Source: a virus (Duplodnaviria; Caudoviricetes). Taken from it: a DNA stretch of 64,000 bases. Each line of letters starts with the position of its first letter. Positions within the stretch are counted from its first letter, which is position 1. Location of the stretch: IMG/VR virus record IMGVR_UViG_3300008267_000148, positions 830 to 64,829 of that record. One strand, written 5' to 3'. Both the position numbers and the translations under genes were made by a program. Of the stretch, positions 15,463-63,829 are shown piece by piece. A model generated the notes under the pieces. That model saw nothing but the letters and a program-made list of their open reading frames with translations, was not told the DNA's origin and did no database searches.

Positions 15463-15735
15463 TCAAAAATCTACAAAACAACTACCGTCAATTGAAAATA
15501 ATTTGATTCTAGTATCCATATCCTTCTTCATATAATATTTCAATATTTTGTCAGTATATTCACCGAAATCACCTCTATTTAGAATTTTAACCAGAAACTC
15601 GTGAATATTAATATTAATAGATTTATATGGTCTATTGTTATATCCTATAATAACAAACTTAATCCGGTTGGGGTTTTTTGGAATGTCAACCTCAACAGGT
15701 TTAGTTTCGTGTATCTTTAATGGATTATCTATCAA
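15463..15735 (-). CDS. hypothetical protein
   Basis: 90-aa ORF overlapping the end of rmlC. Confidence 0.6.
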   Translation of the reverse strand: MIDNPLKIHETKPVEVDIPKNPNRIKFVIIGYNNRPYKSININIHEFLVKILNRGDFGEYTDKILKYYMKKDMDTRIKLFSIDGSCFVDF

Positions 15736-16243
15736 AGGTAAAGTTCTTGGTGTAGTTATCTTTATGTGAAATAATCAAATCATCAGTTGATAACTTACCA
15801 TCAAAAAACTCTTTAATGGTCTCTCTAATCTCAGGAAACTCGTTCCAATAAATTGAACCTTCGTTCTCAGGACTATACACATTATCAACCAAATATTGAA
15901 CAACCGTGTTATCCTCGGTAGTTAAAAATCCGTGAGCGTAACCTCTTGGGACCAATAATACTTCACCAGGTGATACTATAAACGTACTAACCTTCATATA
16001 CTCAGGTGACTCAGGTCTAATGTCAACAATAAAGTCAATTATCATACCGTGAATTACTTTAATTAACTTAGCTTGAGCAAAGTCACCTAATTGGAAGTGC
16101 AATCCTCTAAAAGTCCCTCTAGTAGTGTTTACACTAACATTACTCTGTAACCATTGTTTACCTAATAAATCTAAAGCTAGTGGTGCAAATGACCCTCTAT
16201 GGTCCACAAAAACATCGTTTTTAATTTTATAACCGAATTCCAT
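15725..16243 (-). CDS. rmlC: dTDP-4-dehydrorhamnose 3,5-epimerase
   Basis: D.RG.F, GTFRGLHFQ, QAKL, D..VDIR..SP, VPRGYAHGF, Y.P..E. Confidence 0.92.
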   Translation of the reverse strand: MEFGYKIKNDVFVDHRGSFAPLALDLLGKQWLQSNVSVNTTRGTFRGLHFQLGDFAQAKLIKVIHGMIIDFIVDIRPESPEYMKVSTFIVSPGEVLLVPRGYAHGFLTTEDNTVVQYLVDNVYSPENEGSIYWNEFPEIRETIKEFFDGKLSTDDLIISHKDNYTKNFTFDR

Positions 16244-16244
16244 A

Positions 16245-17159
16245 TTACTTAATAATTTTTTCTAACCAATCTTTTAGTTTAATTGTTTGTATTTCACCAA
16301 ACTCTATTCTGTATTTTGAACTACTTAAAGAATATCTTCTGTCATGACCTAGTCGGTCTTCAACATATTTGTATTTAACTTCTTTACCTAAGATTTCACT
16401 AATCATACTTACCACTTGATTATTGGTGTAGGTCTCTTCACTACCAATATTGTAGATTTGATTAATCTGGTCTGACTTTAATAGTGTATAGATAGCCCTT
16501 GAGTTATCGTCAGCATGAATCCATTCTCTAACTTGATTACCATCACCATAAACAGGAACCTCAACATTGTTCTTAATTGATTGGATAATCTTAGGAATGA
16601 ATTTTTCGTGGTGTTGATTCTCACCGTAATTGTTACAAGTTCTGGTGATAAGATAAGGTAAACCAAATGTTCTGTTGGCTGAGATTACCAATAGGTCAGC
16701 CGCCGCTTTGGTTGATGAGTAATAAGAACTTGGGTGAAGTCCATCACCTTCTTGAGCTACGTGGTTTGGTGACCAAGTAAAATCATCCATATCACCATAA
16801 ACCTCATCCGTTGAGATGTGTAAGAATTTCTTTAGTTTGTCGTTCTTTCTGGCAACCTCCAACATGTTGAATGTTCCCTGGACGTTTGATTTAACAAATG
16901 GTAAACCGTCTTTGATTGAATTGTCTACGTGAGATTCTGCGGCGAAGTTAACAATGTAATCATACTCACCTAATTCTTCTGCAGTAACATCACAAATGTC
17001 TTTTTGAATAAACTTAACTGACTTACGGATATTATTAGGGTTCGCAGCATAAGTCATTTTATCAATCAAAACAATCTCGTCGTTTGTATTCTCGTTTACG
17101 TAATTAATAAAGTGTGAACCAATAAATCCAAGTCCACCTGTTACAATAATTTTACTCAT
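16245..17159 (-). CDS. rmlB: dTDP-glucose 4,6-dehydratase
   Basis: TGGLGFIGS, DKMTYAAN, FAAESHVDNSI, HISTDEVYG, YSSTKAAAD, NNYG, DRLGHDRRY. Confidence 0.95.
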   Translation of the reverse strand: MSKIIVTGGLGFIGSHFINYVNENTNDEIVLIDKMTYAANPNNIRKSVKFIQKDICDVTAEELGEYDYIVNFAAESHVDNSIKDGLPFVKSNVQGTFNMLEVARKNDKLKKFLHISTDEVYGDMDDFTWSPNHVAQEGDGLHPSSYYSSTKAAADLLVISANRTFGLPYLITRTCNNYGENQHHEKFIPKIIQSIKNNVEVPVYGDGNQVREWIHADDNSRAIYTLLKSDQINQIYNIGSEETYTNNQVVSMISEILGKEVKYKYVEDRLGHDRRYSLSSSKYRIEFGEIQTIKLKDWLEKIIK

Positions 17160-19442: not shown

Positions 19443-19880
19443 TTACTTAATCTGCCGCATAATTTCCCGATTAATATCTTTTTCTTTTAAACTTTCCCTC
19501 TTATCGTAAAGTTTTTTACCCTTACCTAAGACAATTTCCATCTTTAATAATCCCTTCTCAGTGCTAAAAATCTTATAGGGTACCAGTGTCAAACCTTTTA
19601 CCAGTTCTTTTTGTAGTTTGACCAACTCTCGTTTCTTCATTAAGAGTTTACGCTCTCGTAGTGGTTCGTGAGTATAGGATTGTTTATACTCAGGAATGTT
19701 CATTCCCTTCACAAAAAGTTCACCATCGTTAAAGTAACAATACGCATCCACCAACGAGACTTTACTATCACGGATTGACTTCACCTCAGAACCCATCAGT
19801 TGAATCCCCACGGTAAACGTATCCACGAAGAAATACTCGTGACTCACTTTACGGTTTACTATGTTGACTGATTTTTTCAC
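19443..19880 (-). CDS. smpB: SsrA-binding protein (start revised to GTG at 19880)
   Basis: NRK..HEYF, GIQLMGSEVKSIR, HEPLRERKLL, GLTLVP, GKGKKLYDKRE. Confidence 0.93.
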   Translation of the reverse strand: MKKSVNIVNRKVSHEYFFVDTFTVGIQLMGSEVKSIRDSKVSLVDAYCYFNDGELFVKGMNIPEYKQSYTHEPLRERKLLMKKRELVKLQKELVKGLTLVPYKIFSTEKGLLKMEIVLGKGKKLYDKRESLKEKDINREIMRQIK

Positions 19881-19884
19881 ACCA

Positions 19885-19916
19885 CAAAGATACATAAAAA
19901 AAAACAAAACCCCAAA
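19885..19916 (-). promoter_or_regulatory. Bacteroidota sigma-A promoter TTTG-N20-TATCTTTG
   Basis: exact consensus, 4 nt upstream of the smpB GTG. Confidence 0.85.
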
Positions 19917-31010: not shown

Positions 31011-31346
31011 CTATTTTATCTTTTTAAGTTCATTTGTTGTATAATCAACAATATCTTGTTTGTTGGTCGTACTCAATATAAATACATCACCTTGGTCATT
31101 AAGATACAAATATATTCCTGTAGAGTCAAATTCTTTTAATGTTTTTACATCGTGTTTGATACCTTCTTCATCAATAAACTTTTCATACCAAATCGTATGA
31201 TATCTATTACCCAACATTCTATCGTATATCGACTCATTAAATGGTGGTCTTAGGTGGGTAATCGAAGGATAAGACCCAAATTTATTCATAAAATATATCA
31301 AACAATGTTCTGGTACCATATTACATAAAAGGTAAATCATCCCCAT
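31011..31346 (-). CDS. hypothetical protein
   Basis: ORF between PcfJ-like gene and trxA; true start may be the Met at 31319. Confidence 0.6.
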   Translation of the reverse strand: MGMIYLLCNMVPEHCLIYFMNKFGSYPSITHLRPPFNESIYDRMLGNRYHTIWYEKFIDEEGIKHDVKTLKEFDSTGIYLYLNDQGDVFILSTTNKQDIVDYTTNELKKIK

Positions 31347-33093
31347 CTAGTTGTAAATATTCATTTACATTTACTTCTTCACCCCACTGTAATGAAGCGT
31401 ATTTCCTAGGGTATTCTTCACCCAAATAATAACCTAGTGTAGGTTCACCAACAACCATCTTGGTGTGAATTTGTTTTTTGTTATGTTCTAAAACACCTTC
31501 AGGTAAATCAAATGTTTTGTTGTCAACCAATTTCTGTACTCGTTCATCTAAAATGTTGAGGTATGAATCCCACATGTCCTCCAATCTACTATTAAATCTA
31601 CCCAAACTCTGAACTCTCTTTAATTCAAATATCTTTTCACCGTCGTGGCGTATTTGGTATTCAATGGTGGCTCTTTCTTTACCATTAACATCTCCCAATC
31701 TAAGTGAGATGATAACTGAAGACTCTCGTTTAATATATGTCTTAACACAATTGGACTGGTGGGCGGACTCCGCATTATACTGACCACTATTCAAAAGTAA
31801 CACTGGATGAGCAACCTCATCAATACCTAAAATAACTCTCTCAACTTCTTCTTTGAACTTGTGAGGATAAATCCTGTGGAATGTTCCTTTATTTATGTAA
31901 TCAATCTTTTCAGACCAGTCCATATGTTCCTGTAAGAAAGAGTCGTAATTATTAGACTTCCACTTAATATTTTCAATATCTCGTAATCGAGTGTAAAACC
32001 TAAAGTGGTCATTGAATGTTGATTGAGCAATATCACCCGATATAACTAACTTAAGGATTTCAAACGCGTTTTTGCGTTCCACAGGTCTTTCTTGTAATAT
32101 TTTAATTCTTTCAGGATTAATACTGTAAGTAATGTGACCTAAATTATGGTCGATAATACTTTTAATCGTATTATCATCCAATGATAAGACAAACTTCTCA
32201 CCAAAAACATTTTGGATATCAAATAATCCAGTTAAGTTAGTTGTTGTGGTAGTATGTAAAATTCGTTTTAGTTTATCACCCTTAAGACCATTGAGTTTCA
32301 TGTAGGCTTCAATGTACTTGAAGTTGGTTTTCTTTAAATGTTTTTTGGTAACGGCAGGAAACGAAGTTCTAAATATTTTCCAATTGTTAGGGTACTTAAT
32401 ACCATTATGGTCCAAGTACAATTTATACATTAACTCATCAGAGGTTAAATTAGTTTCCAACGTCTTAATAGGTAATTGGCTAAAAAACGTTTGAATAACC
32501 TCATTAACAAATTGTGACAGGTTTTCAGGTTCTTTGGTAGAGATTCTACCATCAGGTATAAAATAAGAGTGTAGAGCACTTCTAAGATGAGCTTTAATAC
32601 CATTCATAGGTTCACCATAAAAGGTATTCTTAACCATCCTCTTAGAACACTTTCTTTTCTTGTGGTAATTGGTCATGTGACCGTAATAAACCGAACCTTC
32701 CTTTTCATTAAACCCCACGTATCTCATACCAGTGTGTTTAACAAAATAAGGTTTACCAACTCTTCTGGCATTTGAGTAATTAAAAACCTTTAAAGCGGTC
32801 TTACCTTCAAATCTTTCAATAACAACAATAACCCTTTCGTACATCACAGATGCCAATGGATTACCATAATTTTTAAGAAAGGTCTCCTCGTCTTTTTTCT
32901 CGTGGTCTAAAGTAAACTTACGGTATTTTGGGTGGTATTCGCTAGGACCAAGAATATCACTAATATCACCAAACGGGTCATCTTTATTTATATCAAAATT
33001 TCTCGTGACCGCAACAGGGTTAAAGACATTGGTGTCTTTATGAAACCCGGTGTAATGACGTTCAAATACTCTCTTATATAACGTTTCCCTCAT
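31321..33093 (-). CDS. PcfJ-like domain protein
   Basis: EH...; ES.HQSNCVKTY, SLR, RATIEY, QSLGRFN. Confidence 0.8.
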   Translation of the reverse strand: MRETLYKRVFERHYTGFHKDTNVFNPVAVTRNFDINKDDPFGDISDILGPSEYHPKYRKFTLDHEKKDEETFLKNYGNPLASVMYERVIVVIERFEGKTALKVFNYSNARRVGKPYFVKHTGMRYVGFNEKEGSVYYGHMTNYHKKRKCSKRMVKNTFYGEPMNGIKAHLRSALHSYFIPDGRISTKEPENLSQFVNEVIQTFFSQLPIKTLETNLTSDELMYKLYLDHNGIKYPNNWKIFRTSFPAVTKKHLKKTNFKYIEAYMKLNGLKGDKLKRILHTTTTTNLTGLFDIQNVFGEKFVLSLDDNTIKSIIDHNLGHITYSINPERIKILQERPVERKNAFEILKLVISGDIAQSTFNDHFRFYTRLRDIENIKWKSNNYDSFLQEHMDWSEKIDYINKGTFHRIYPHKFKEEVERVILGIDEVAHPVLLLNSGQYNAESAHQSNCVKTYIKRESSVIISLRLGDVNGKERATIEYQIRHDGEKIFELKRVQSLGRFNSRLEDMWDSYLNILDERVQKLVDNKTFDLPEGVLEHNKKQIHTKMVVGEPTLGYYLGEEYPRKYASLQWGEEVNVNEYLQLDGDDLPFM

Positions 33094-44627: not shown

Positions 44628-45407
44628 TTATTTAGTATAACTTAATCTTCTTACCTCGTCATCAGTTGTTGTTGTAGTTGTTATTTCCTCAGTATCTACG
44701 TTTCGACCTTCTTCGTCATAAACTTCACCTACTTCATTAATAAAATATTTGACAGGTACCTCTTTAATAACTTCTACAGGGACTTCAACAATTTTTTCAA
44801 CTTCTTTAATTACCTCAACAGGAACTTCAACAATTTTTTCAACTTCTTTAATTACCTCAACAGGAACTTCAACAATTTTTTCAACTTCCTTAATTACCTC
44901 AACAGGAACTTCAACAATTTCTTTTTCACCCACATTCTCATATTCGTTTTCAGTGTATTTCACAAAGAAATGTAACGACGTTAATGAAATAACCGGTAGT
45001 AATCCACCTTCAAGAAATGCTAACCATCTTTTAATTGATACAATATCATTAATATCAGACCCAAAACTTTCCCATACAGGCCCTGTTAATTCCACCCATG
45101 ACTTGAATAATTCGCTATTCGCATCAATTTCTTTGTATGAAAAGAATATATTACCAATCATTTGGACAAAAGTGACTAATCCAAACATAAACCACACCCC
45201 ACCTTTAATCTTATTAGTGGCCGCAATAAGAGCAGTCATCGCACCCACCTCAATAGCTATTGATAAGTAAATTGCCCATGACAATGGGTTTGATAGGTCA
45301 TACCACGATACTACGTGAGATATAGAGATGCCCGCAACCAACAAAATAGGTACTAAAAACATAGACCTAATTGGGTTGCTCTTAATCCAATTCCAAATTA
45401 ACTTCAT
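44628..45407 (-). CDS. multi-TM membrane protein with EKIVEVPVEVIKEV repeats
   Basis: four TM helices followed by tandem 14-aa repeats. Confidence 0.75.
   Translation of the reverse strand: MKLIWNWIKSNPIRSMFLVPILLVAGISISHVVSWYDLSNPLSWAIYLSIAIEVGAMTALIAATNKIKGGVWFMFGLVTFVQMIGNIFFSYKEIDANSELFKSWVELTGPVWESFGSDINDIVSIKRWLAFLEGGLLPVISLTSLHFFVKYTENEYENVGEKEIVEVPVEVIKEVEKIVEVPVEVIKEVEKIVEVPVEVIKEVEKIVEVPVEVIKEVPVKYFINEVGEVYDEEGRNVDTEEITTTTTTDDEVRRLSYTK
44752..44920. repeat. 42-nt coding tandem repeat (~4 copies)
   Basis: unit acttcaacaattttttcaacttctttaattacctcaacagga. Confidence 0.9.
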
Positions 45408-54564: not shown

Positions 54565-57500
54565 ATGAGTTGTCCTAATACATTAAAATTAAGATGTTGT
54601 AGTAACCCAACAGTTATTATTCAACCATGTAGTCCCAAAATTGACGGTGTTGTTTGGCAGTCATTTATTTTAGGTAATTTCTATTCAGATGACAATGGTG
54701 TATGTTGGGAGGCAGGGGAATTTTCACCAATAACTCATTATAACACAACAAACGCCTATGTAACCGAAAGTAGTTGTGAATCATGTCAATTATTATACCC
54801 TTTAGGTGATTGTGAAATCTTACCACCGGTTTCTGGTGAAACTTGTAATTGTATTGATATTTTTATAAACGATGAAGATTTATTAAATGCTACGGGTAAC
54901 ACAAATGCACCTAACGGTTCAGTTATTATAGATATTCTCGCTTGTGAAAGTGAATCCCCAACAAGTTTTATTTTCTCAACAGCGGGAAGTGCCATATATT
55001 GTGGAACATTATTAGGCCCACCATATTATTATCAAGACAATGATTTAGTTGTTGCAACATCAACCGCAACTCAAACCGCAAATGTTTGTTCACAAGCCGA
55101 AGATTGTGCTTTACCAACACCTACACCAACATCAACACCAACACAAACACCAACACAAACTCAAACCCCAACTTTAACGTCAACACAAACTCAAACCCCA
55201 ACACCAACACCAACACCAACATTAACTTCTACACTGACATTAACACCGACATTAACACCGACAGGTACTTTAAATCCAACACCAACACCAACACCAGTAT
55301 GTACATGTGAGTGTTTACAAGGGGATACTAATTTACCAACATTAGCAACAGGTAATACCGACACTAACTTAAATAATTTGGTTAGGGTGACTTATACTGA
55401 TTGTAGTGGTAATTTAGTTGATGCTGCGTTAACAATGTCCTCAACATTCAGACTTTGTGTTGAGGGTCCTTGTAACTCAGGTAGTATCAGCCAAATAGTG
55501 GTATATGTTGATGACGTTGGGTATACCGGTACAACGTTCCCGTACACACTTAGTGGATACTCGTTTTCATTTGGGTGTTCATCAACACCTTGTTGTGATA
55601 ATGACGATTGTGGTAGCCCAATAATACCAATGACTCCAACACCAACCGTAACTTCAACTTCAACACCAACACTTACTCCAACACCAACTTTGACGGAGAG
55701 TAGTACACCAACCCCTACGCCTACCGTAACACAAACTAGTACCCCCACACCAACACCAACGCCTTGTGCGATTTGTGTTTGTTGGACGTTAAGGTATACA
55801 GGTTCTACCTCACCTGCAACTGCTGAATATACAAATTGTTCCAATAGTTTGGATACGTTAACCGTATACCCTAACGAACAATTTAGTCTATGTGTTTGCG
55901 ATGGTACATCAGTTGAAATTATTGAGGACCCGTCAACTTCATTAGAGACGGTATCATTAGGTCTTTGTTCTGATGGTATAACTTGTGATACTCCAGCAGC
56001 AACTCAAACACCAACACCAACACCAACATCAACACAAGCGAGTACTCCAACCCCCACGCCTACATTAACCGAAACCCCAACTCCAACACCGACTCGAACT
56101 TTAACACCAACCCCAACACCGACTCGAACTTTAACACCAACCCCAACTTCAACACCTACAAGTTGTTTTGACGATTATTGTTTGTCTAATACAGGTAACT
56201 CAACTTGGAATGATATTTATGAAATAACGGGTACCCATAACGGTAAAGATTACTGGGTAGGTGCAGTTAATGGTCTTTATATTTATTACGATTCTACAAA
56301 TGTACAATGGTGTTTGTCAGACGCATTAGATGGTAGTTGTTATCTATCGGGTCAATCACCATGTCAACACAATTGTCCTGACTTATGTACTGATTATTTC
56401 ACAAATGGAGTTTGTCCAACCCCAACTCCAACACCAACCTCAGCCTGTGAGATTGATTTCGATATTATTTTTGAATGTGATACTAGTGTTACACCTACCC
56501 CAACACCTACACCCACAGTAACCCCAACACAAACACTAACACCAACACCTACTAATGTATGTGCATCTCTTAGTGTTGACGCATCAATATCTTTCTCAAC
56601 TCCAACACCGACACCAACTCAAACATTAACCCCAACCCCAAGCGCACCAATATCAAGACCTTGTAACTTTACGGGTGATGTAACATTTACAACCTTAGAT
56701 GAGATTATGTTATGTCCTAATAGTAAACAATTCCAAGATTGTTATAATGGTACAATGTATTATGTGACAGGAGTTGTTGATACACCAAGTGGTGATACTT
56801 TAGAACCGTACATGGTATTTGAGGCATTGGTTGATGGTACTTCAAAATGTATTTCATATATTGGTGAAAATAATGAAGTTATTGGTATTAACACCATTGA
56901 CCTTAGAACAGGTCCTTATGGTTTCTCTAATCTTGGTGATTGTATTAATTGTTCTGTTTTGGTGACTCCAACACCTACAATGACACCTACAATGACACCA
57001 ACCCCAACGATGACACCAACTCAATCATCGTTACCTATTTCAGGATATTACACATTTAAAAAATGTGATAATACAAACACTTACATAATTCAAACGTCAC
57101 CATCATTTGTAACAACCTCGGGTACAACATTCTACAATTCAGGTGACTTATCTTGTTGGACTTATTTATATAATACGCCATCAATTCCGTCACTAAACCC
57201 AAGTTATAATATTATCAATTTTACGGGTAATTATTTCTCAAGTTCAGGTACAACTTATGATAAGTGTGAGGAATGTATTGGTTCAACCACTACAACAACC
57301 ACAACAACTTCGTTACCTGTATCGTGTAGTGTTCCTTACACCCACTACAAAATGAACACATGTGCTAGAACGACGGGGTACATTAAAGTTAATGGTATTA
57401 TACAATATAGTTTTGTTGCAACAACTCCGGTAAATGCTTATTCAGGTGTCTTATCTGTAACAACAGGTGATATTATTGAGATTAATCTTACTTGTTTAGC

Positions 57501-57678
57501 ACCTAATAATACTTGTCCTGATACAATGTCGATGGGTAGTTTAGGTATATCACCTTTTAATTTGAATTACAACACTTATTACCCAAGTACACCTATTAGT
57601 GAAACATTTATCGTAGATAGTAGTTGGTGTAATCCAGGAACCCAAATCGTTTTACAGAGTGATTCTATAGGGGTATAA
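54565..57678 (+). CDS. large Cys-rich protein with multiple (Thr-Pro)n linkers, putative virion fibre/surface protein
   Basis: at least seven PTPT tracts separating small Cys-rich modules; no signal peptide. Confidence 0.8.
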   Translation: MSCPNTLKLRCCSNPTVIIQPCSPKIDGVVWQSFILGNFYSDDNGVCWEAGEFSPITHYNTTNAYVTESSCESCQLLYPLGDCEILPPVSGETCNCIDIFINDEDLLNATGNTNAPNGSVIIDILACESESPTSFIFSTAGSAIYCGTLLGPPYYYQDNDLVVATSTATQTANVCSQAEDCALPTPTPTSTPTQTPTQTQTPTLTSTQTQTPTPTPTPTLTSTLTLTPTLTPTGTLNPTPTPTPVCTCECLQGDTNLPTLATGNTDTNLNNLVRVTYTDCSGNLVDAALTMSSTFRLCVEGPCNSGSISQIVVYVDDVGYTGTTFPYTLSGYSFSFGCSSTPCCDNDDCGSPIIPMTPTPTVTSTSTPTLTPTPTLTESSTPTPTPTVTQTSTPTPTPTPCAICVCWTLRYTGSTSPATAEYTNCSNSLDTLTVYPNEQFSLCVCDGTSVEIIEDPSTSLETVSLGLCSDGITCDTPAATQTPTPTPTSTQASTPTPTPTLTETPTPTPTRTLTPTPTPTRTLTPTPTSTPTSCFDDYCLSNTGNSTWNDIYEITGTHNGKDYWVGAVNGLYIYYDSTNVQWCLSDALDGSCYLSGQSPCQHNCPDLCTDYFTNGVCPTPTPTPTSACEIDFDIIFECDTSVTPTPTPTPTVTPTQTLTPTPTNVCASLSVDASISFSTPTPTPTQTLTPTPSAPISRPCNFTGDVTFTTLDEIMLCPNSKQFQDCYNGTMYYVTGVVDTPSGDTLEPYMVFEALVDGTSKCISYIGENNEVIGINTIDLRTGPYGFSNLGDCINCSVLVTPTPTMTPTMTPTPTMTPTQSSLPISGYYTFKKCDNTNTYIIQTSPSFVTTSGTTFYNSGDLSCWTYLYNTPSIPSLNPSYNIINFTGNYFSSSGTTYDKCEECIGSTTTTTTTTSLPVSCSVPYTHYKMNTCARTTGYIKVNGIIQYSFVATTPVNAYSGVLSVTTGDIIEINLTCLAPNNTCPDTMSMGSLGISPFNLNYNTYYPSTPISETFIVDSSWCNPGTQIVLQSDSIGV

Positions 57679-57692
57679 AAACCCATATAAAA

Positions 57693-57720
57693 AAAAATAT
57701 CGTCTAAAAAGACGATATTT
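57693..57720. terminator. intrinsic terminator between convergent genes
   Basis: aaatatcgtct-aaaa-agacgatattt. Confidence 0.8.
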
Positions 57721-57745
57721 CAAATTATCGGTAAATTAAACGATA

Positions 57746-58345
57746 TTACCAAATTTCTTCTTGTTTCATATAACCTAAGACACAACAGTATGCGTCTGTT
57801 TGGTCAAAATTTTCTTTCTTAAGAGTGTTATTTTTGGTGTACTGCCATTGAATCTGAGGTTCTCTTTTAGCAACTAATTCCCATATAATCATCTTCTTAT
57901 CACAATCTTTAGGATATCCACCAAATAAAACAAACTTCTTTTTATCGTTTTGTTGAGTTAAATGTGGGAAAGCGAATTTTCTAGAATTATATGTCGATAT
58001 AAATTCAGGAACCACTCCCAAAATATCATAAACCTCTTTACAGATTAGAGTGTTAAATCTCATTAGTGTTCCAATCGTATATACGTTGTTTGAGTTTAAT
58101 AAAGGTTCTTCAATAATCACTTTAGTAATTCCCAAGTCTTTATAAGCTAAAAGTTTAGTTTTGAAGATATCACTCTTCAATAGTAACTCTTTAATCTTAT
58201 TTTCCTCTTTTGGTTTTGGGACTGGTGAAATGTGGGTTAACTCTAATAATTGTTTTGTTTGAATGTCGAATAACGCCCATCCAATTGTTTTGGTTGATAC
58301 ATCTAACCCTAAAACTTTGGGGCTTTCTTTGAATTTTTTGCTCAT
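57746..58345 (-). CDS. RuvC-like Holliday junction resolvase
   Basis: LGLDVSTKTIGWA, IIEE, K, D..DA. Confidence 0.8.
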   Translation of the reverse strand: MSKKFKESPKVLGLDVSTKTIGWALFDIQTKQLLELTHISPVPKPKEENKIKELLLKSDIFKTKLLAYKDLGITKVIIEEPLLNSNNVYTIGTLMRFNTLICKEVYDILGVVPEFISTYNSRKFAFPHLTQQNDKKKFVLFGGYPKDCDKKMIIWELVAKREPQIQWQYTKNNTLKKENFDQTDAYCCVLGYMKQEEIW

Positions 58346-58354
58346 ATTACTATT

Positions 58355-60817
58355 TTAGAAATCAAACTTAACCAAGAACTGTTGTATTCCTTGTCTAACA
58401 ACAGGTGATTGTAGCTTAGATATAATCATAAGGTTCTTGTCTGAATCGTAAAGACCAATTTCAGTAATATATGGTGTTAACGTGTCATTCCATGTTGGGT
58501 TTGATGACGTTTGAAACTCCGCTTGACCTAAATTAACTTTATATCTCATCTCGTAAATAGTTGCCTGAATATCAGTTTCAATGTTTCCGTAGAAATAATA
58601 TTCGTCACCAAAATTAAGTTGTGGTGTTGTGACATTATTCTCAGTTAAGTTAATGTAATCACTTAAATCATAATAATCAGCATTGTCATACATATCTTGT
58701 GTGATAACAAACGTAGACCCCGTTAATGCGTCTTGAGTAATGTATCCACCTATGGTTGACCCACTAATAACATTGGTCATGTCAATAATTTTCCATTCAT
58801 CAGCATCAGGTCTTGTATCACCAGATACTTTTTGACAAATAATTTCAAATTTATCAGCATAATACCCATTTGGTACATAACAATAGGTTGGGCATAACGT
58901 TGTTGTGGTTGTCGTCGTAGTTGTTGTGTCGGTTGGTGTTACTAAACAACCAAACTCAGCCCCAAATCTTATACCCACATTTTGAGAAGTAATTGGTTGA
59001 CAATCAATGTTAGGACCTTGTATTTTTTGATAATAGTTACAATGTAATGAATTAGTAAACGATTGGGTATTACTTAATCTATATGTAACATAAAGATATT
59101 CTGTTGTTGCGGATAACATACCGACAACAGATTCTTCAGTTGTGTTACAAGTATTAGGTGTTACTAATGTCAACTTAGGTGCCGGTAAAGTCCAGTTTCT
59201 GTTTGACTTGTAAGATAATGCGGCAATAATTTCCTCATCGTCAAAAATAACAATTTGTGAATCAGGGAATACTTTACCCACACGATTAGGAATTCCATTA
59301 TCGTTAGGGTTATTATCCCATAAATGGTAGTAACGTAATCCCGGTACATTCATATCAGGATTTTTAGTTGACTTAATGTATTGTACCTCAAATAAACCGA
59401 ACTCATCAAATCCTGGTGGGTCAACCCAAAATGTTTGTCCATTACAACATGCAGGGTTTTTATGCCACATTAACCAAGGGATATGAATTCTAAAGTTTCT
59501 AGCTTGACCTGTAGTATCGGCAATATTTTGATATGGTTCAAATGCGAACTTCTCACCATAAAAGAAATCAATTGTGTTATTAGTATAATGAACAATGGCA
59601 ATAGCTTTTTGGTCTTTTGGTTCAACAATAACTTTCTCATCAAATGAGTTGTAGTAATATGTTGCACTAGTATCTGTTTGACCACTATTTGACATGTATC
59701 CGAAGTACTCTTTTGACCCCATGAATCCAACAGAACCAAATTGGTCATACCCTTTATATGTGTTGTTATATAAACCTGCAGGATTTTCAGACCATGGAAT
59801 ATTCATATTCCAAACATTAACATTGAACTCGTCAGTATAACAAAGTGATTCGTAATTGATAACGTTTTGATTCCAATGTTGCCATGGTGTAACTGAGTCA
59901 TATAATGAACTCATATTTGGCGGATAGATTAATACTCTTGAGTAACATCCTGAACCTAATGAAGAAAAATCAGGTGTTGCTCTGTCTAAAGTGTACTTAT
60001 CTAAACAAATATCAACAATACGATAAGTCATCATAGAGTAACAACTATGTATTGAAATTACACATTGGTCGGGTAATGGTGTTGGGCAAGGATTTGTTGG
60101 TTCAGGAACACAACAAGTTGCTGATGGTGTTGGTGTCGGTGTTACCGTAGCACATGGTAAATTGTTAGTTGCCGATGGCGTAGGTGTTGGTGTTGTATGA
60201 CCATTAGATGCGGTCATTGTCATTGTTGGTGTAGGTGTAGGTGTAGGTGGTGTAATACAAGAACAATTGTATTGACCATGACCATCATAATAGATAGTAA
60301 TTAAATCACCAACCGCAGGTAATCTTACAATATCGGTATTACATCCTGAATACGATAACTGAATGGTTGTACCACCAGTTAAACTTGACATATCAACAAT
60401 ATAATTAGAATTTATCACATATTGGTCATTAGTCCAAGCACTCCAATTAATAGTAGTTGCCGAAGTATTACCTGTGAAAAATCCTCTCATCGCCGCTCTA
60501 TTATAAACAGGGCTAACAATTGAGTCCATAAATGGTATTCCATAAGTGTTACCACTAACTCCATCAACATAGAATGGGTATTTTACATATTGTTTGTTTG
60601 ATTGTGGTGAACCCGCTGAATTTTGAGAATTAAAACTTGGTTCTAAAACAAAAGTATTGGCTTGATTGTATGATGAAGGTAATGAATTATACGATACTTC
60701 CCCATCACCAATTTGGAAATATGATATATTAAACGTACCTTGAGATAACTTCTGTCTTGCGGTATCGGTTAACCTTGTGTTTATCAACCCTGAAGTATTT
60801 TTTAAAATATAACTCAT
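58355..60817 (-). CDS. putative tail/baseplate structural protein with TP tract
   Basis: N-terminal LTD.ARQ.L..G...ISYFQIGD.EV.Y and C-terminal YITEIGLYD...L....KL..P motifs typical of large-phage structural proteins; TATTTAT at 60822-60828. Confidence 0.7.
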   Translation of the reverse strand: MSYILKNTSGLINTRLTDTARQKLSQGTFNISYFQIGDGEVSYNSLPSSYNQANTFVLEPSFNSQNSAGSPQSNKQYVKYPFYVDGVSGNTYGIPFMDSIVSPVYNRAAMRGFFTGNTSATTINWSAWTNDQYVINSNYIVDMSSLTGGTTIQLSYSGCNTDIVRLPAVGDLITIYYDGHGQYNCSCITPPTPTPTPTMTMTASNGHTTPTPTPSATNNLPCATVTPTPTPSATCCVPEPTNPCPTPLPDQCVISIHSCYSMMTYRIVDICLDKYTLDRATPDFSSLGSGCYSRVLIYPPNMSSLYDSVTPWQHWNQNVINYESLCYTDEFNVNVWNMNIPWSENPAGLYNNTYKGYDQFGSVGFMGSKEYFGYMSNSGQTDTSATYYYNSFDEKVIVEPKDQKAIAIVHYTNNTIDFFYGEKFAFEPYQNIADTTGQARNFRIHIPWLMWHKNPACCNGQTFWVDPPGFDEFGLFEVQYIKSTKNPDMNVPGLRYYHLWDNNPNDNGIPNRVGKVFPDSQIVIFDDEEIIAALSYKSNRNWTLPAPKLTLVTPNTCNTTEESVVGMLSATTEYLYVTYRLSNTQSFTNSLHCNYYQKIQGPNIDCQPITSQNVGIRFGAEFGCLVTPTDTTTTTTTTTTLCPTYCYVPNGYYADKFEIICQKVSGDTRPDADEWKIIDMTNVISGSTIGGYITQDALTGSTFVITQDMYDNADYYDLSDYINLTENNVTTPQLNFGDEYYFYGNIETDIQATIYEMRYKVNLGQAEFQTSSNPTWNDTLTPYITEIGLYDSDKNLMIISKLQSPVVRQGIQQFLVKFDF

Positions 60818-60846: not shown

Positions 60847-62121
60847 TTATGAAATTGATTCTTCAATTCCCATTGTCGCTGATGAGTCAATCACAACATC
60901 ACAACAAGAACATCTGTTTATAACTGCGTTTGTAATAACATATGTGTCAACAGCATTTGCCACTAAACATGATGATGGTACAAAACTCACAGTTGTTGTA
61001 GTATTAATCTCAACCACATCACCACTTCCGATGATAATTGATGACCAATTATCTGTAATAGTATTCACATATACAGACCCACTTTGACAACCCGGAAGAG
61101 TGTTTGGTATTGTAGAACTTCCACTACTTTGAGAAGAAACTAGTTGTGGTATTCCATTTTTAGTTAAAACACTATTAGTCGCTAATGAAGCGGTAAATGG
61201 ATTAGGTGCTGACTTAAATACATTTAAATGACTTAGATTAACCGTTATGTCAACACCAGGTGGTAATGGAGGTGTTACACTTACCGTTACGGTATTCTGT
61301 TCTGTTGTTGAGTTGGATGTACTTCCTATCGTTGTTGAATACAATAAGTTAACCGTATACGTCACAGGTGTGACTGAGTTTGTTAACAAAGCCCCTAAAC
61401 TATATATTTGATTAGTACTATCTTTAACAACTACGGAGTAATTACCTTCACAAAGATTATTATATAATGGCTTGTTTGAGAACCATGTCACCCCATTATC
61501 GATTGAGAATTGATATGGTGGGACTCCACCTGATGGTATTATTGATATTGAACCATCACACTCACAACTTGGTTGATTAATCGACATTGTGAATGTAACA
61601 GGTGTTGTTTGACTGCACTCACCTGAATATGAAATTAAATTACCTATACCTCCACCTACGGTGTACCATCCTGATAATGGTGGATAAGGGGTTGCACTTA
61701 AGACTGAATATGTTAATGAACCTCCACTAAGTGTCCACTTATTTGTTGTCGTATTAAAGTAGATTGAATAAGTACTATCGTCGGAAATCCAAGATTGGTA
61801 CCCACCGTATAACCCGTCACTATTGAAATGGACAAAGTCGTCACCACTAATCTGTAAACAAAAATCATATGTTAATTGTTTATCTTGTACGGGTATTGAT
61901 ATGTTTGTCCCACATAATGTATTAACCACATAAAGAACCGTAGTTCCATTAGGTACCATAACAAAAACACCGGTAGATATTTGTGAATAAGTGATACCTG
62001 TTGCGGGTGACACTGAATTATATAAATTAGCAACGTGAGCACTATCTATTGAGGTATAATAGACCTCATACGGACCTGGTGATGTACCACCTGTTAATAT
62101 CACATTATAATACTGACTCAT
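60847..62121 (-). CDS. putative virion protein with SprB-like repeat
   Basis: PSCECDGSISI..SGGVPPYQFSIDNG...NLCEGNYSVVVKDS. Confidence 0.7.
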   Translation of the reverse strand: MSQYYNVILTGGTSPGPYEVYYTSIDSAHVANLYNSVSPATGITYSQISTGVFVMVPNGTTVLYVVNTLCGTNISIPVQDKQLTYDFCLQISGDDFVHFNSDGLYGGYQSWISDDSTYSIYFNTTTNKWTLSGGSLTYSVLSATPYPPLSGWYTVGGGIGNLISYSGECSQTTPVTFTMSINQPSCECDGSISIIPSGGVPPYQFSIDNGVTWFSNKPLYNNLCEGNYSVVVKDSTNQIYSLGALLTNSVTPVTYTVNLLYSTTIGSTSNSTTEQNTVTVSVTPPLPPGVDITVNLSHLNVFKSAPNPFTASLATNSVLTKNGIPQLVSSQSSGSSTIPNTLPGCQSGSVYVNTITDNWSSIIIGSGDVVEINTTTTVSFVPSSCLVANAVDTYVITNAVINRCSCCDVVIDSSATMGIEESIS

Positions 62122-62135
62122 TTTATTTATATCTA

Positions 62136-62825
62136 TTATTTACTACAAGTACAATCTTTATGACTACTTTGGAATAAGTTAGTAACTAATCCGTTTTGGT
62201 ATTGTATTACCTCGTAACATCCTGAAAGGATAGTACCGCTAGGCCATTTTATTTTAATATAATCACCAATACTTGCTAATCCGTTATTAGGAATAACTCG
62301 TAAATCAAGGTTATCGTCACAATTTCTAACCAATAATCCATTAGGTTTAGTTGGTGTTGGGGTAGGTGTTTTAGTTCTTGTTAATGTCGGAGTATTGGTT
62401 GGTGTTGGCGTGCTTGTTGTACCTGGAGTTGTTGTTAATGTTGGGGTTGGTGTTAATGTTTTGGTTGGGGTTGGTGTTAATGTTCTCGTTAATGTTGGTG
62501 TTGGTGTTGGTTGAACTGAGAAATTAACCGCGATAACACCAAAATCACAATCGGTTGTTGCGGTTAAGGTACATTCAGTAATAGCACTAAAATCATTATA
62601 ATAATCAATAACCGTGGCAGTATATGTACCAACACTTAAGTTATTAATTGCCGGAGATATTGTACCGTTACTCCAAATAATAGAATATGGTGGTGTACCT
62701 CCTGTAATTGATACTGTTAATTGTCCGTCTGAAGCGACAGGTGAAGATGGATTTACAGCAATACATTCAACTTCCATAGGGAAGATTGTGACTACATTAC
62801 ATTCATTTTGAATTTGTGAACCCAT
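62136..62825 (-). CDS. putative virion protein with SprB-like repeat and TP tract
   Basis: DGQLTVSITGGTPPYSIIWSNG....NLSVGTYTATVID; long PTPT region; TATTTAT at 62842-62848. Confidence 0.7.
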   Translation of the reverse strand: MGSQIQNECNVVTIFPMEVECIAVNPSSPVASDGQLTVSITGGTPPYSIIWSNGTISPAINNLSVGTYTATVIDYYNDFSAITECTLTATTDCDFGVIAVNFSVQPTPTPTLTRTLTPTPTKTLTPTPTLTTTPGTTSTPTPTNTPTLTRTKTPTPTPTKPNGLLVRNCDDNLDLRVIPNNGLASIGDYIKIKWPSGTILSGCYEVIQYQNGLVTNLFQSSHKDCTCSK

Positions 62826-62854: not shown

Positions 62855-63829
62855 TTATTGTTTTTTGACTATAGATATCATAAGTTCTATATATTTTTTT
62901 GTTGAGCTATTATTTTCAACGTAATCAAAATAACTAATATCTTCTTTTAGTTTATCCAATGGACTAACATTTATGAAATCTCCCTTGAAGAATTTTCTAT
63001 TTTTTAAGTCTTGTGTGACTCCCGCCATGTGTAGGATAGGTCTTTGTTCGTAAACTCTTATATCATCAGTAGCCCAAGAAAAATCTAATTCTTTAGTGAT
63101 TTTAGTTTCTTTTCCAAAGTACCATAGGTTCCACAATAAAGACCACATCTCAGCAGTCCAAAATTGTATTTGACCAGGGTTAATAGGGAATCTTTTTTGG
63201 TAGTCTAACATTTGGTCGTATAATGGTACACAATCCATGTAGATTTTCTCCCATATCATCCAATCGGTATTTTTGATAATGTATTGACCCCCACCTGAGT
63301 TTTCCTGATTACATTCAATACATTCGGGGGTAATACCAATAACGTTACACATTTCTTGTAACAATTGACCTTCGTTTGATTCAGGATGTTGGGCTTCATA
63401 CCTCTTACAACAATCCATTATATAGTTGTAACCGATATATCCAATCGTATCAGATAAATAACAAATTTTATCATCTAACAATTTATTAAATTCAGGTAAT
63501 TCTCTAAAAATAATATCGGAATCATGTAAGAAAAAACACTCACCATATTGTGGATTTTCTTTCAACCATTGGTAAACTAAAAATGGTTTGATGTTTGGAA
63601 TATAATGTTTGAACTCTCGTGTATCTAAATAATGATGAACATTAACACCCAATTCTTTTATACTTAAAGACTCTTGAGTTGGTTCAGTATTGTTGTTAAC
63701 TATCCCAAATAAAACATGAATATTTTTAGGGTTAATTCCCATCTCAATAAAGTTGTGAATATACACTCTGACTTGCCAGTGAAAATATGGGACATCAGGT
63801 TGTGAACTAACAAAAAGTAATTTATCCAT
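62855..63829 (-). CDS. GT-A fold glycosyltransferase resembling plant peptidyl-serine galactosyl / hydroxyproline arabinosyl transferases (GT96/GT95)
   Basis: YFHWQ, YIPNIKP..V..WL, DSDIIFR, GY, GGG, WTAEMW, H in the same order as the SERGT1/HPAT motifs. Confidence 0.7.
   Translation of the reverse strand: MDKLLFVSSQPDVPYFHWQVRVYIHNFIEMGINPKNIHVLFGIVNNNTEPTQESLSIKELGVNVHHYLDTREFKHYIPNIKPFLVYQWLKENPQYGECFFLHDSDIIFRELPEFNKLLDDKICYLSDTIGYIGYNYIMDCCKRYEAQHPESNEGQLLQEMCNVIGITPECIECNQENSGGGQYIIKNTDWMIWEKIYMDCVPLYDQMLDYQKRFPINPGQIQFWTAEMWSLLWNLWYFGKETKITKELDFSWATDDIRVYEQRPILHMAGVTQDLKNRKFFKGDFINVSPLDKLKEDISYFDYVENNSSTKKYIELMISIVKKQ

Follow-up and report, generated by a model that had tools for sequence, protein, structure and literature searches.

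Among the closest described counterparts of the system considered here are mycobacteriophages, in which glycans are reported on the C-termini of capsid and tail tube subunits (Freeman 2023, via PMC12619734; also cited in PMC13313380 and PMC12582341) and for which PMC12619734 reports immune effects of virion glycosylation. A second point of comparison is chlorovirus PBCV-1, whose major capsid protein is modified by a virus-encoded, soluble GT-A enzyme (A64R-type) independently of host secretory glycosylation. Among cellular enzymes, pneumococcal GlyE decorates a Ser-rich repeat adhesin and forms a close functional analogy. The plant hydroxyproline arabinosyltransferases (HPATs) are described as Golgi type II membrane proteins acting on hydroxyproline or serine (PMC8012813); their family, GT95, is predicted to be GT-A-like, while GT96, that of peptidyl-serine alpha-galactosyltransferase, is given a possibly novel predicted fold and no representative crystal structure (PMC8476585). 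Here we examine a glycosyltransferase gene at positions 62855-63829 of a 64,000-nucleotide stretch of tailed-phage DNA (Duplodnaviria; Caudoviricetes), namely positions 830 to 64,829 of IMG/VR record IMGVR_UViG_3300008267_000148; this whole stretch is called the window below. A sequence-only reading had described the gene product as a plant-type protein O-glycosyltransferase acting on the Pro/Thr-rich fibres of the phage itself, possibly with sugar from its rmlB and rmlC, and had known of no described phage system of this type. That last statement was wrong in kind, the mycobacteriophage virion glycosylation outlined in PMC12619734 being a precedent. Our analysis indicates that the enzyme, a member of the phrog_4417 family, probably acts in the cytoplasm as a soluble, metal-dependent GT-A glycosyltransferase that modifies low-complexity, Thr-rich stretches in virion proteins of the same phage. 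Virion glycosylation as such is known from mycobacteriophages; the version proposed here, linked to poly-threonine (poly-Thr) and phrog_4417, would be a new one, and our literature searches returned no precedent for this family or for a link between poly-Thr and such a transferase.

The open reading frame (ORF) lies exactly where it had been placed, on the minus strand, with an ATG start and a length of 324 amino acids (aa). All five of the longer motifs ascribed to it are present, beginning at residues 15 (YFHWQ), 76 (YIPNIKPFLVYQWL), 102 (HDSDIIFR), 179 (GGG) and 224 (WTAEMW); two further elements, GY and H, are so short that their presence says nothing. The motifs go beyond chance because they coincide with conserved columns of a large family. 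In an alignment of 57 sequences (A1), W18, Y76, D105, G180, M228, H267 and K282 are invariant, and Y15, Q19, D103, G179, Q222, W224 and W229 are at least 90% conserved. The protein is soluble and, as had been claimed, lacks a membrane anchor: it contains no hydrophobic segment, the maximum 19-residue Kyte-Doolittle mean being 0.75. The features on which the assignment turns are as follows.

62855..63829, minus strand: soluble, predicted GT-A glycosyltransferase of the phrog_4417 family, 324 aa (ORF with ATG start, phrog_4417 match, AlphaFold2 model, fold matches)
63515..63523, minus strand: DxD motif D103-S104-D105, predicted metal and nucleotide-sugar site (conservation; position after strand 98-101)
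63029..63031, minus strand: His267, putative third metal ligand as in GT8 enzymes (invariant in alignments A1 and A6)
62984..62986, minus strand: K282, invariant in A1, near His267

An alignment-based AlphaFold2 model of the transferase reached a predicted local distance difference test score (pLDDT) of 97.8 and a predicted TM-score (pTM) of 0.94. Searched against the Protein Data Bank (PDB) with Foldseek, it gave 389 matches at E <= 0.001, with GT-A enzymes on top (WbbM, the UGGT catalytic domain, xyloside xylosyltransferase, glycogenin, ABO transferases and LgtC; E 2e-7 to 2e-5), the TM-scores to these being modest at 0.36-0.48. Comparison of residues 1-324 of the model with 48,161 representative chains by VIA-align yielded Z-scores of 15.2 for glycogenin, 14.4 for LgtC, 14.4 for WbbM residues 280-572, 14.3 for Skp1 alpha-galactosyltransferase, 14.1 for UGGT, 13.7 for GlyE and 11.1 for the PBCV-1 capsid glycosyltransferase (2p6w). 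The best of these alignments span 208-242 residues at a root-mean-square deviation of 3.3-4.3 and an identity of just 6-11%. On this model we assign the protein, with high confidence, a GT-A fold consisting of a single Rossmann-like alpha/beta/alpha domain, nearest to enzymes of the GT8 and GT24 types (also GT6) in CAZy terms. As the best fold matches are retaining enzymes, a retaining mechanism would be expected here also.

The predicted active site is consistent with this assignment. The DxD motif is kept in alignments A2 and A6 as well as in A1, and from the GT-A fold it would be expected to take part in catalysis. H267 and K282 may be equivalent to the metal-binding His and diphosphate-binding Lys of GT8 enzymes. 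Between the fold, the DxD motif and the glycan-related enzymes to which relatives are fused (below), the identification of the protein as a glycosyltransferase held up. A separate likeness, between residues 155-183 (about 63281-63367; QLLQEMCNVIGITPECIECNQENSGGGQY) and one TAL-effector repeat, appeared in a PDB sequence search with E down to 9.5e-6; we rejected it as chance, the E-value being a sum over many weak repeat matches of which each single stretch is insignificant.

The transferase matches phrog_4417, a family of unknown function, at E 1.5e-72, its residues 6-317 aligning with positions 3-288 of the 293-position profile. Pfam and NCBIfam contain no matching model, and for the neighbours of the transferase these collections recognise SprB repeats only. 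Neither the Pfam GT8 model (Glyco_transf_8) nor any other Pfam glycosyltransferase model was found for the transferase at E <= 1 or among 57 relatives at E <= 5. The family is nevertheless large: in a protein collection clustered at 90% identity, 1292 of 1541 candidates are relatives at E <= 0.001, and at 50% identity there are 840 representatives. By tblastn (E <= 1e-5), 77 GenBank phage records, chiefly of Lactobacillus, Enterococcus, Staphylococcus and Lactococcus phages, contain a homolog, in every case below 60% identity and labelled hypothetical. Many relatives are longer fusions, and each recognisable partner domain is glycan-related: the GlcNAc-T domain PF11397, protein O-FucT, GT2, GT25, GT6, GT7C, sugar dehydratase/epimerase, sulfo- and methyltransferase and F5/8-C domains were seen. 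In one provirus rated 98% complete, the transferase match contains a single in-frame TGA, which may mark a broken copy or a boundary effect.

Evidence on the acceptor comes from genomic context. Nine GenBank phages were picked for host diversity, and a long poly-Thr tract occurs in a protein adjacent to the homolog in all nine, in most cases forming the C-terminal tail of the major tail protein, the capsid protein or both (T10 in Lactococcus phage 1706 and T16 in PMBT8, for example). In phiFL1A, 1706, phiCTP1 and PMBT8 the homolog comes immediately after the gene for the major tail or tail tube protein, and in iLp84, VPE25 and R3.3 it comes after the capsid-gene region; in Iacchus its position is outside the head/tail module, and the record of the ninth, a Chryseobacterium phage, is unannotated. 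Six distant tail proteins share, save for one pair, 20-25% identity, and yet the poly-Thr columns are among the few that are invariant. In phiFL1A, runs of at least four threonines are confined to two of 61 coding sequences, those of the major head and major tail proteins. The annotation of the same 61 sequences includes no other glycosyltransferase and no sugar-nucleotide gene; since no other glycosyltransferase is annotated, the enzyme of this phage would have to start the glycan itself from a host nucleotide sugar.

A controlled comparison was obtained by gathering 80 viral loci through homology to a tail protein from which the poly-Thr tail had been trimmed. Tail and enzyme occur together at 41 of these and are both missing at 36; three have the tail only (two of them without flank), and none has the enzyme only. 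Restricting the set to the 56 distinct tail proteins with adequate flanks left 28 with both, 27 with neither, one with the tail only and none with the enzyme only (Fisher p = 8e-15, uncorrected for relatedness). Where the enzyme is missing, the homologous tail proteins have plain ends or Ig-like extensions. On the tail-protein tree, the minimum number of changes is six for poly-Thr and seven for the enzyme.

A more diverse set of 80 viral loci (75 distinct; 35-56% identity to a distant query) showed the same association. A poly-Thr ORF lies within 3 kb of the enzyme at 40 of the 51 loci having at least 3 kb on both sides; the proportion of such ORFs is 56/240 within 1 kb and 1-2% beyond 3 kb, and in enzyme-free control loci it is 4/517. 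Nearly all of the poly-Thr ORFs near the enzyme (65/71) are directly upstream of it and co-oriented. Among ten that were sampled, four have the N-terminus of a major tail protein and one matches a virion structural protein. Of the loci found in bacterial genomes, those from Bacillota show the link in 19 of 22 cases.

The mechanism which we propose is that the enzyme would move a sugar from a host-supplied nucleotide sugar to the hydroxyl of threonine, and perhaps serine, within Thr-rich tracts, forming an O-linkage and probably initiating the glycan. Transfer would take place before or during assembly, and the modified tails and linkers would then be coated with glycan in the manner of a mucin. 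Small Firmicutes phages would offer the C-terminal poly-Thr tails of two proteins, the major tail protein and the major capsid protein, as acceptors; in the large phage from which the window derives, the acceptors would probably be three proteins encoded in or beside the gene series of the transferase, namely a 229-aa SprB-repeat protein, a conserved 820-aa protein and a multi-linker 1037-aa protein, all of which we would place in the virion. Protection from proteases, stiffening of linkers and shielding from recognition are candidate benefits. The Pro/Thr-rich fibre acceptors put forward by the sequence-only reading are thus retained in part: the coupling to Thr-rich proteins stands, while the recurring signal is threonine, as poly-Thr or Thr-Pro, and not a Pro or hydroxyproline repeat. 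A broader proposition is that these observations reflect a widespread one-enzyme system, in which poly-threonine tags on capsid, tail tube and fibre-like proteins are glycosylated by a soluble, GT8-like phrog_4417 enzyme, and enzyme and tag are gained and lost together; we are inclined, if only slightly, to accept it.

In the window, the transferase is the first of five co-directional minus-strand genes separated by gaps of 29, 14, 29 and 9 bp. The other members of the series, the elements that adjoin it and a distant pair of sugar-nucleotide genes are listed here.

62136..62825, minus strand: 229-aa SprB-repeat protein (PF13573 SprB, E 1.4e-6) whose residues 104-164 (62334-62516) form a Thr/Pro linker of 61 residues, candidate acceptor
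60847..62121, minus strand: 424-aa SprB-repeat protein (PF13573, E 1.4e-7), Ser/Thr-rich by composition, without TP or poly-Thr runs
58355..60817, minus strand: 820-aa multidomain protein, the best-conserved candidate acceptor, whose sequence includes Thr/Pro linkers (60071-60265) and a T10 run (58898-58927)
57746..58345, minus strand: 199-aa RuvC-like resolvase (phrog_159, E 5.3e-6), last of the series
57694..57721, minus strand: terminator-like hairpin of 12 pairs with a T run (consensus match only), shared as a closing element by the minus-strand series and the convergent plus-strand gene
54565..57678, plus strand: 1037-aa protein (phrog_15511) in which seven Thr/Pro linkers and a T8 tract separate small Cys-containing domains, a candidate acceptor that varies among relatives
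15725..17159, minus strand: rmlC (15725-16243) and an rmlB-type dehydratase/epimerase (16245-17159), possible sugar-nucleotide supply (Pfam)

Thr-rich tracts are concentrated around the transferase. All three ORFs of the window with (T/S)P runs are in its neighbourhood, the 1037-aa protein alone having 12 TP/SP runs, and so are the two longest of the four poly-Thr runs. The remaining two, of T5 and T6, are distant from it, in ORFs of 590 aa (31321-33093) and 259 aa (44628-45407), and may be additional acceptors or chance occurrences. phrog_15511 is a family of unknown function. The 820-aa protein has no Pfam, PHROG or NCBIfam match, and its profile, compared with the PDB, matched a low-complexity stretch only. 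The RuvC-like resolvase is not thought to belong to the glycosylation function. PHROG scans of conserved upstream genes and of ten large ORFs in the window recovered almost nothing structural, and a promoter scan was uninformative (38 sites against 38.1 expected).

The same arrangement recurs in the relatives of this phage. Across 80 related viral loci (58-86% identity, 66 distinct) gene order is kept, with relatives of the 229-, 424-, 820-, 199- and 1037-aa proteins present in 77, 72, 72, 65 and 63 of them, respectively. At +2 to +4 kb, 48 of 61 ORFs contain (T/S)P runs and 45 of 61 contain poly-Thr, compared with 2/119 and 1/146, and with 3/119 and 0/146, in the outer bins; a (T/S)P-run ORF lies within 5 kb downstream of the transferase at 53 of the 55 loci with enough flank. 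Because these loci form one syntenic clade, their coupling counts as a single evolutionary observation. The co-occurrence with Pro/Thr-rich genes that had been suggested as a check was found, then, as a coupling to Thr-rich proteins, both in the clade of the window and in distant phages. The Thr/Pro linker of the 820-aa protein is kept in 28 of 29 aligned orthologs (A3). In some orthologs, entire additional domains, the longest reaching several hundred residues, are inserted precisely at the Thr/Pro linker and poly-Thr site, and it is this exact placement that suggests the linkers act as hot spots of domain insertion.

Presence of rmlB and rmlC in the window, as previously claimed, was borne out (rmlC: PF00908, E 1.6e-36; rmlB-type: PF01370, E 2e-57, and PF16363, E 2e-51), at a distance of about 46 kb from the transferase. 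No rmlA occurs among the 25 of 41 matched Pfam families that were listed for the window, and the sole RmlD-type match among them falls on the rmlB-type protein itself. On these families the deoxy-sugar pathway of the window is incomplete, and the host or genes beyond the window would have to supply the rest. Its putative link to the transferase is weakened by the lack of annotated sugar-nucleotide genes in small phages that carry the enzyme.

Several observations weigh against the role in virion glycosylation that we propose. The evidence for coupling is genomic throughout, and its counts are inflated by relatedness: the tail-protein tree has three independent pairs on supported branches (two concordant, none discordant and one unchanged), which leaves the sign test underpowered. 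No poly-Thr ORF lies within 3 kb of the enzyme at 11 of the 51 diverse viral loci, and one phage record rated 100% complete encodes a poly-Thr-tailed tail protein and no phrog_4417-type enzyme, positive controls in the same search scoring 1e-102; this phage may use another enzyme or may recently have lost the transferase. Among loci in Bacteroidota genomes the link was seen in 4 of 26; the protein of these genomes is mostly a fused form of 450-712 aa, in contexts unlike those of phages. These loci (in Pedobacter, Chitinophaga, Mucilaginibacter, Elizabethkingia and Sphingobacterium) often have flanking ORFs of 730-780 aa, one of which contains a Walker-type GSGKTT; at another locus, a nearby 101-aa ORF has a Thr/Gly/Ser-rich stretch. 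The Bacteroidota chromosomal loci look like a cellular glycosylation cluster of another kind. For the window's candidate acceptors, too, the virion location is putative. The predicted fold of the 820-aa neighbour is poor (mean pLDDT 48) and was not used for a fold search; tblastn of this protein and of a conserved upstream 1006-aa protein against cultured phages gave no match, and a tail-fibre PHROG match was obtained for just one syntenic variable gene of a relative. Lastly, enzymes acting on lipopolysaccharide (LPS), LgtC and WbbM, tie with the protein-modifying glycogenin, Skp1 alpha-galactosyltransferase, GlyE and UGGT at Z 13.7-15.2. The sequence-only reading had named a best structural match to a DNA- or LPS-modifying enzyme as a ground for abandoning its proposal, and because of this tie such a test cannot discriminate.

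Some of these points are what would be expected if the poly-Thr and Thr-Pro tracts were unmodified spacers, co-occurring with the enzyme through co-inheritance of a structural module and having no enzyme-substrate relation to it. Linkers of Thr and Pro occur widely in multidomain surface proteins, independent support on the phylogeny amounts to the three pairs just mentioned, and one complete phage keeps the tail without the enzyme. We nevertheless find this explanation quite improbable, since the tract stands beside the enzyme on unrelated carriers (capsid proteins, tail proteins, small proteins of about 110 aa and large fibre-like proteins) and recurs from Bacillota prophages through GenBank phages to environmental contigs, while close tail-protein homologs lacking the enzyme end plainly or with Ig-like domains, and the tracts of phiFL1A are restricted to so few of its proteins. 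The target of the enzyme might instead be a glycan of the host surface (LPS, teichoic acid or capsule), as in superinfection exclusion, or the enzyme might only extend a glycan begun by another. The LPS enzymes among the best fold matches would agree with this, as would the second glycosyltransferase domain fused in many relatives, which suggests multi-step glycan building, and the lack of poly-Thr neighbours beside the Bacteroidota chromosomal forms. We regard it as unlikely: the protein has no membrane anchor, its gene lies in late structural modules and not near lysogeny genes, phiFL1A offers no second annotated glycosyltransferase that could begin a glycan, and the near one-to-one tracking of poly-Thr tails would be left unexplained.

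Phage glycosyltransferases frequently act on DNA, and glycosylation of hydroxymethylated bases as a protection against restriction has to be considered, the more so as Enterococcus phage VPE25 has both a homolog of the transferase and glucosylated cytosines, according to PMC4999554. In the same text, the modification is ascribed to a T4-like beta-glucosyltransferase, and a second sugar-related ORF, which may or may not be the homolog, is speculated to modify the DNA further (PMC4999554). A thymidylate-synthase-type hydroxymethylase (PF00303) was found in VPE25 and in none of four smaller complete carriers (phiFL1A, 1706, iLp84 and R3.3), a comparison that does not cover TET/JBP-type routes. 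With the gene inside head/tail modules in seven of the nine phages examined and tracking poly-Thr tails, a DNA substrate seems to us very improbable indeed. The plant-type label itself, under which a GT95/GT96 homolog would modify Pro-rich, extensin-like repeats (serine or hydroxyproline next to proline), possibly with an rml-derived deoxy sugar, found no support: the Pfam HPAT model (PF23452) does not match the protein, and the nearest solved folds are of GT8, GT24 and GT6. Among relatives, PF23452 matched one of 57 at E 0.38 and none of 92 at E <= 0.01; against four phage records, neither it nor DUF7164 (PF23741) gave anything at E <= 10, a weak answer given that control genomes were equally silent. 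In the ESM Atlas, PF23452 HPAT is the label of 10% of the members of one related viral cluster, a set that takes in 20 of the 30 nearest named clusters, and this we treat as a weak lead for plant-type kinship. Thr-Pro-rich neighbours and the rmlB/rmlC pair of the window would also suit such an enzyme, as would the GT-A-like fold predicted for GT95 in PMC8476585. With the protein and nearly all of its relatives missed by PF23452, no anchor on the transferase, pure poly-Thr without proline in the tracts of distant carriers, and small carriers devoid of annotated sugar-nucleotide genes, there is in our estimation only a slim chance that this label is correct. Nor are hydroxyproline acceptors of the plant kind known from bacteria or phages.

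The source record is a 64.8-kb viral contig which CheckV rates as 22% complete, and on that account the phage would be very large; related contigs reach 318 kb. Among the other products of the window are DnaJ, SmpB (19443-19907), a glutamine synthetase catalytic domain and a sigma-70-type factor, as well as a thioredoxin/glutaredoxin, two DNA methylases and a NUDIX protein. PMC12619734 describes "moraphages" as large aquatic phages of 200-307 kbp, mostly from freshwater, for which Bacteroidota hosts are predicted and whose core genes include four putative glycosyltransferases, and highlights glutamine synthetase and DnaJ among their genes. The gene content of the window fits that description, and membership of the group is a putative assignment.

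Glycosylation of Thr-rich tracts by phrog_4417 enzymes would supply a testable function for a large family so far annotated as hypothetical, including in well-studied phages of Lactococcus, Lactobacillus, Enterococcus and Staphylococcus. On this reading, carrier phages would have glycoproteins as their major capsid and tail proteins, which would bear on virion stability, adsorption, the interpretation of cryo-electron microscopy maps and the immune recognition of therapeutic phages. If the poly-threonine tag system is real, it would represent a simple, portable module for cytoplasmic O-glycosylation, spread over Bacillota, Bacteroidota-type and many uncultured lineages, and one soluble enzyme paired with a short tag that can be encoded in a gene would suit cytoplasmic glycoengineering. 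For the window itself, the implication is that poorly known, very large aquatic phages may decorate the linkers of variable, adhesin-like proteins.

Set against the known systems, plant GT95 (HPAT) and GT96 (SGT1) enzymes resemble the proposed one in outline, in that low-complexity, Pro/Ser/Thr-rich structural repeats are O-glycosylated; they are membrane-anchored in the Golgi, whereas the phage transferase has no anchor and is not recognised by the Pfam HPAT model. The PBCV-1 system belongs to a eukaryotic virus, its enzyme is a weaker fold match than the GT8 enzymes (Z 11.1), and its linkage and acceptor are different. In fold, the transferase is most like the GT8-type glycogenin, LgtC, Skp1 alpha-galactosyltransferase Gat1 and GlyE and the GT24 enzyme UGGT, which it also resembles in a DxD motif after the fourth strand, in solubility and perhaps in its C-terminal His and Lys residues; several of these act on cytoplasmic proteins, whereas the acceptors predicted for the phage enzyme are poly-Thr tracts of virion proteins. 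The mycobacteriophage enzymes apparently belong to a different family, no Mycobacterium phage being named among the 77 positive records of the tblastn tally (E <= 1e-5). That system is reported to combine phage-encoded glycosyltransferases with glycosylated C-termini of capsid and tail tube subunits, and in the phages considered here it is on the same two kinds of subunit that C-terminal poly-Thr tails adjoin the enzyme gene. The present system would differ in its hosts, which are Bacillota, Bacteroidota-type and environmental, in the simple poly-Thr tag predicted as its acceptor and, for the window, in the use of internal linkers of large proteins.

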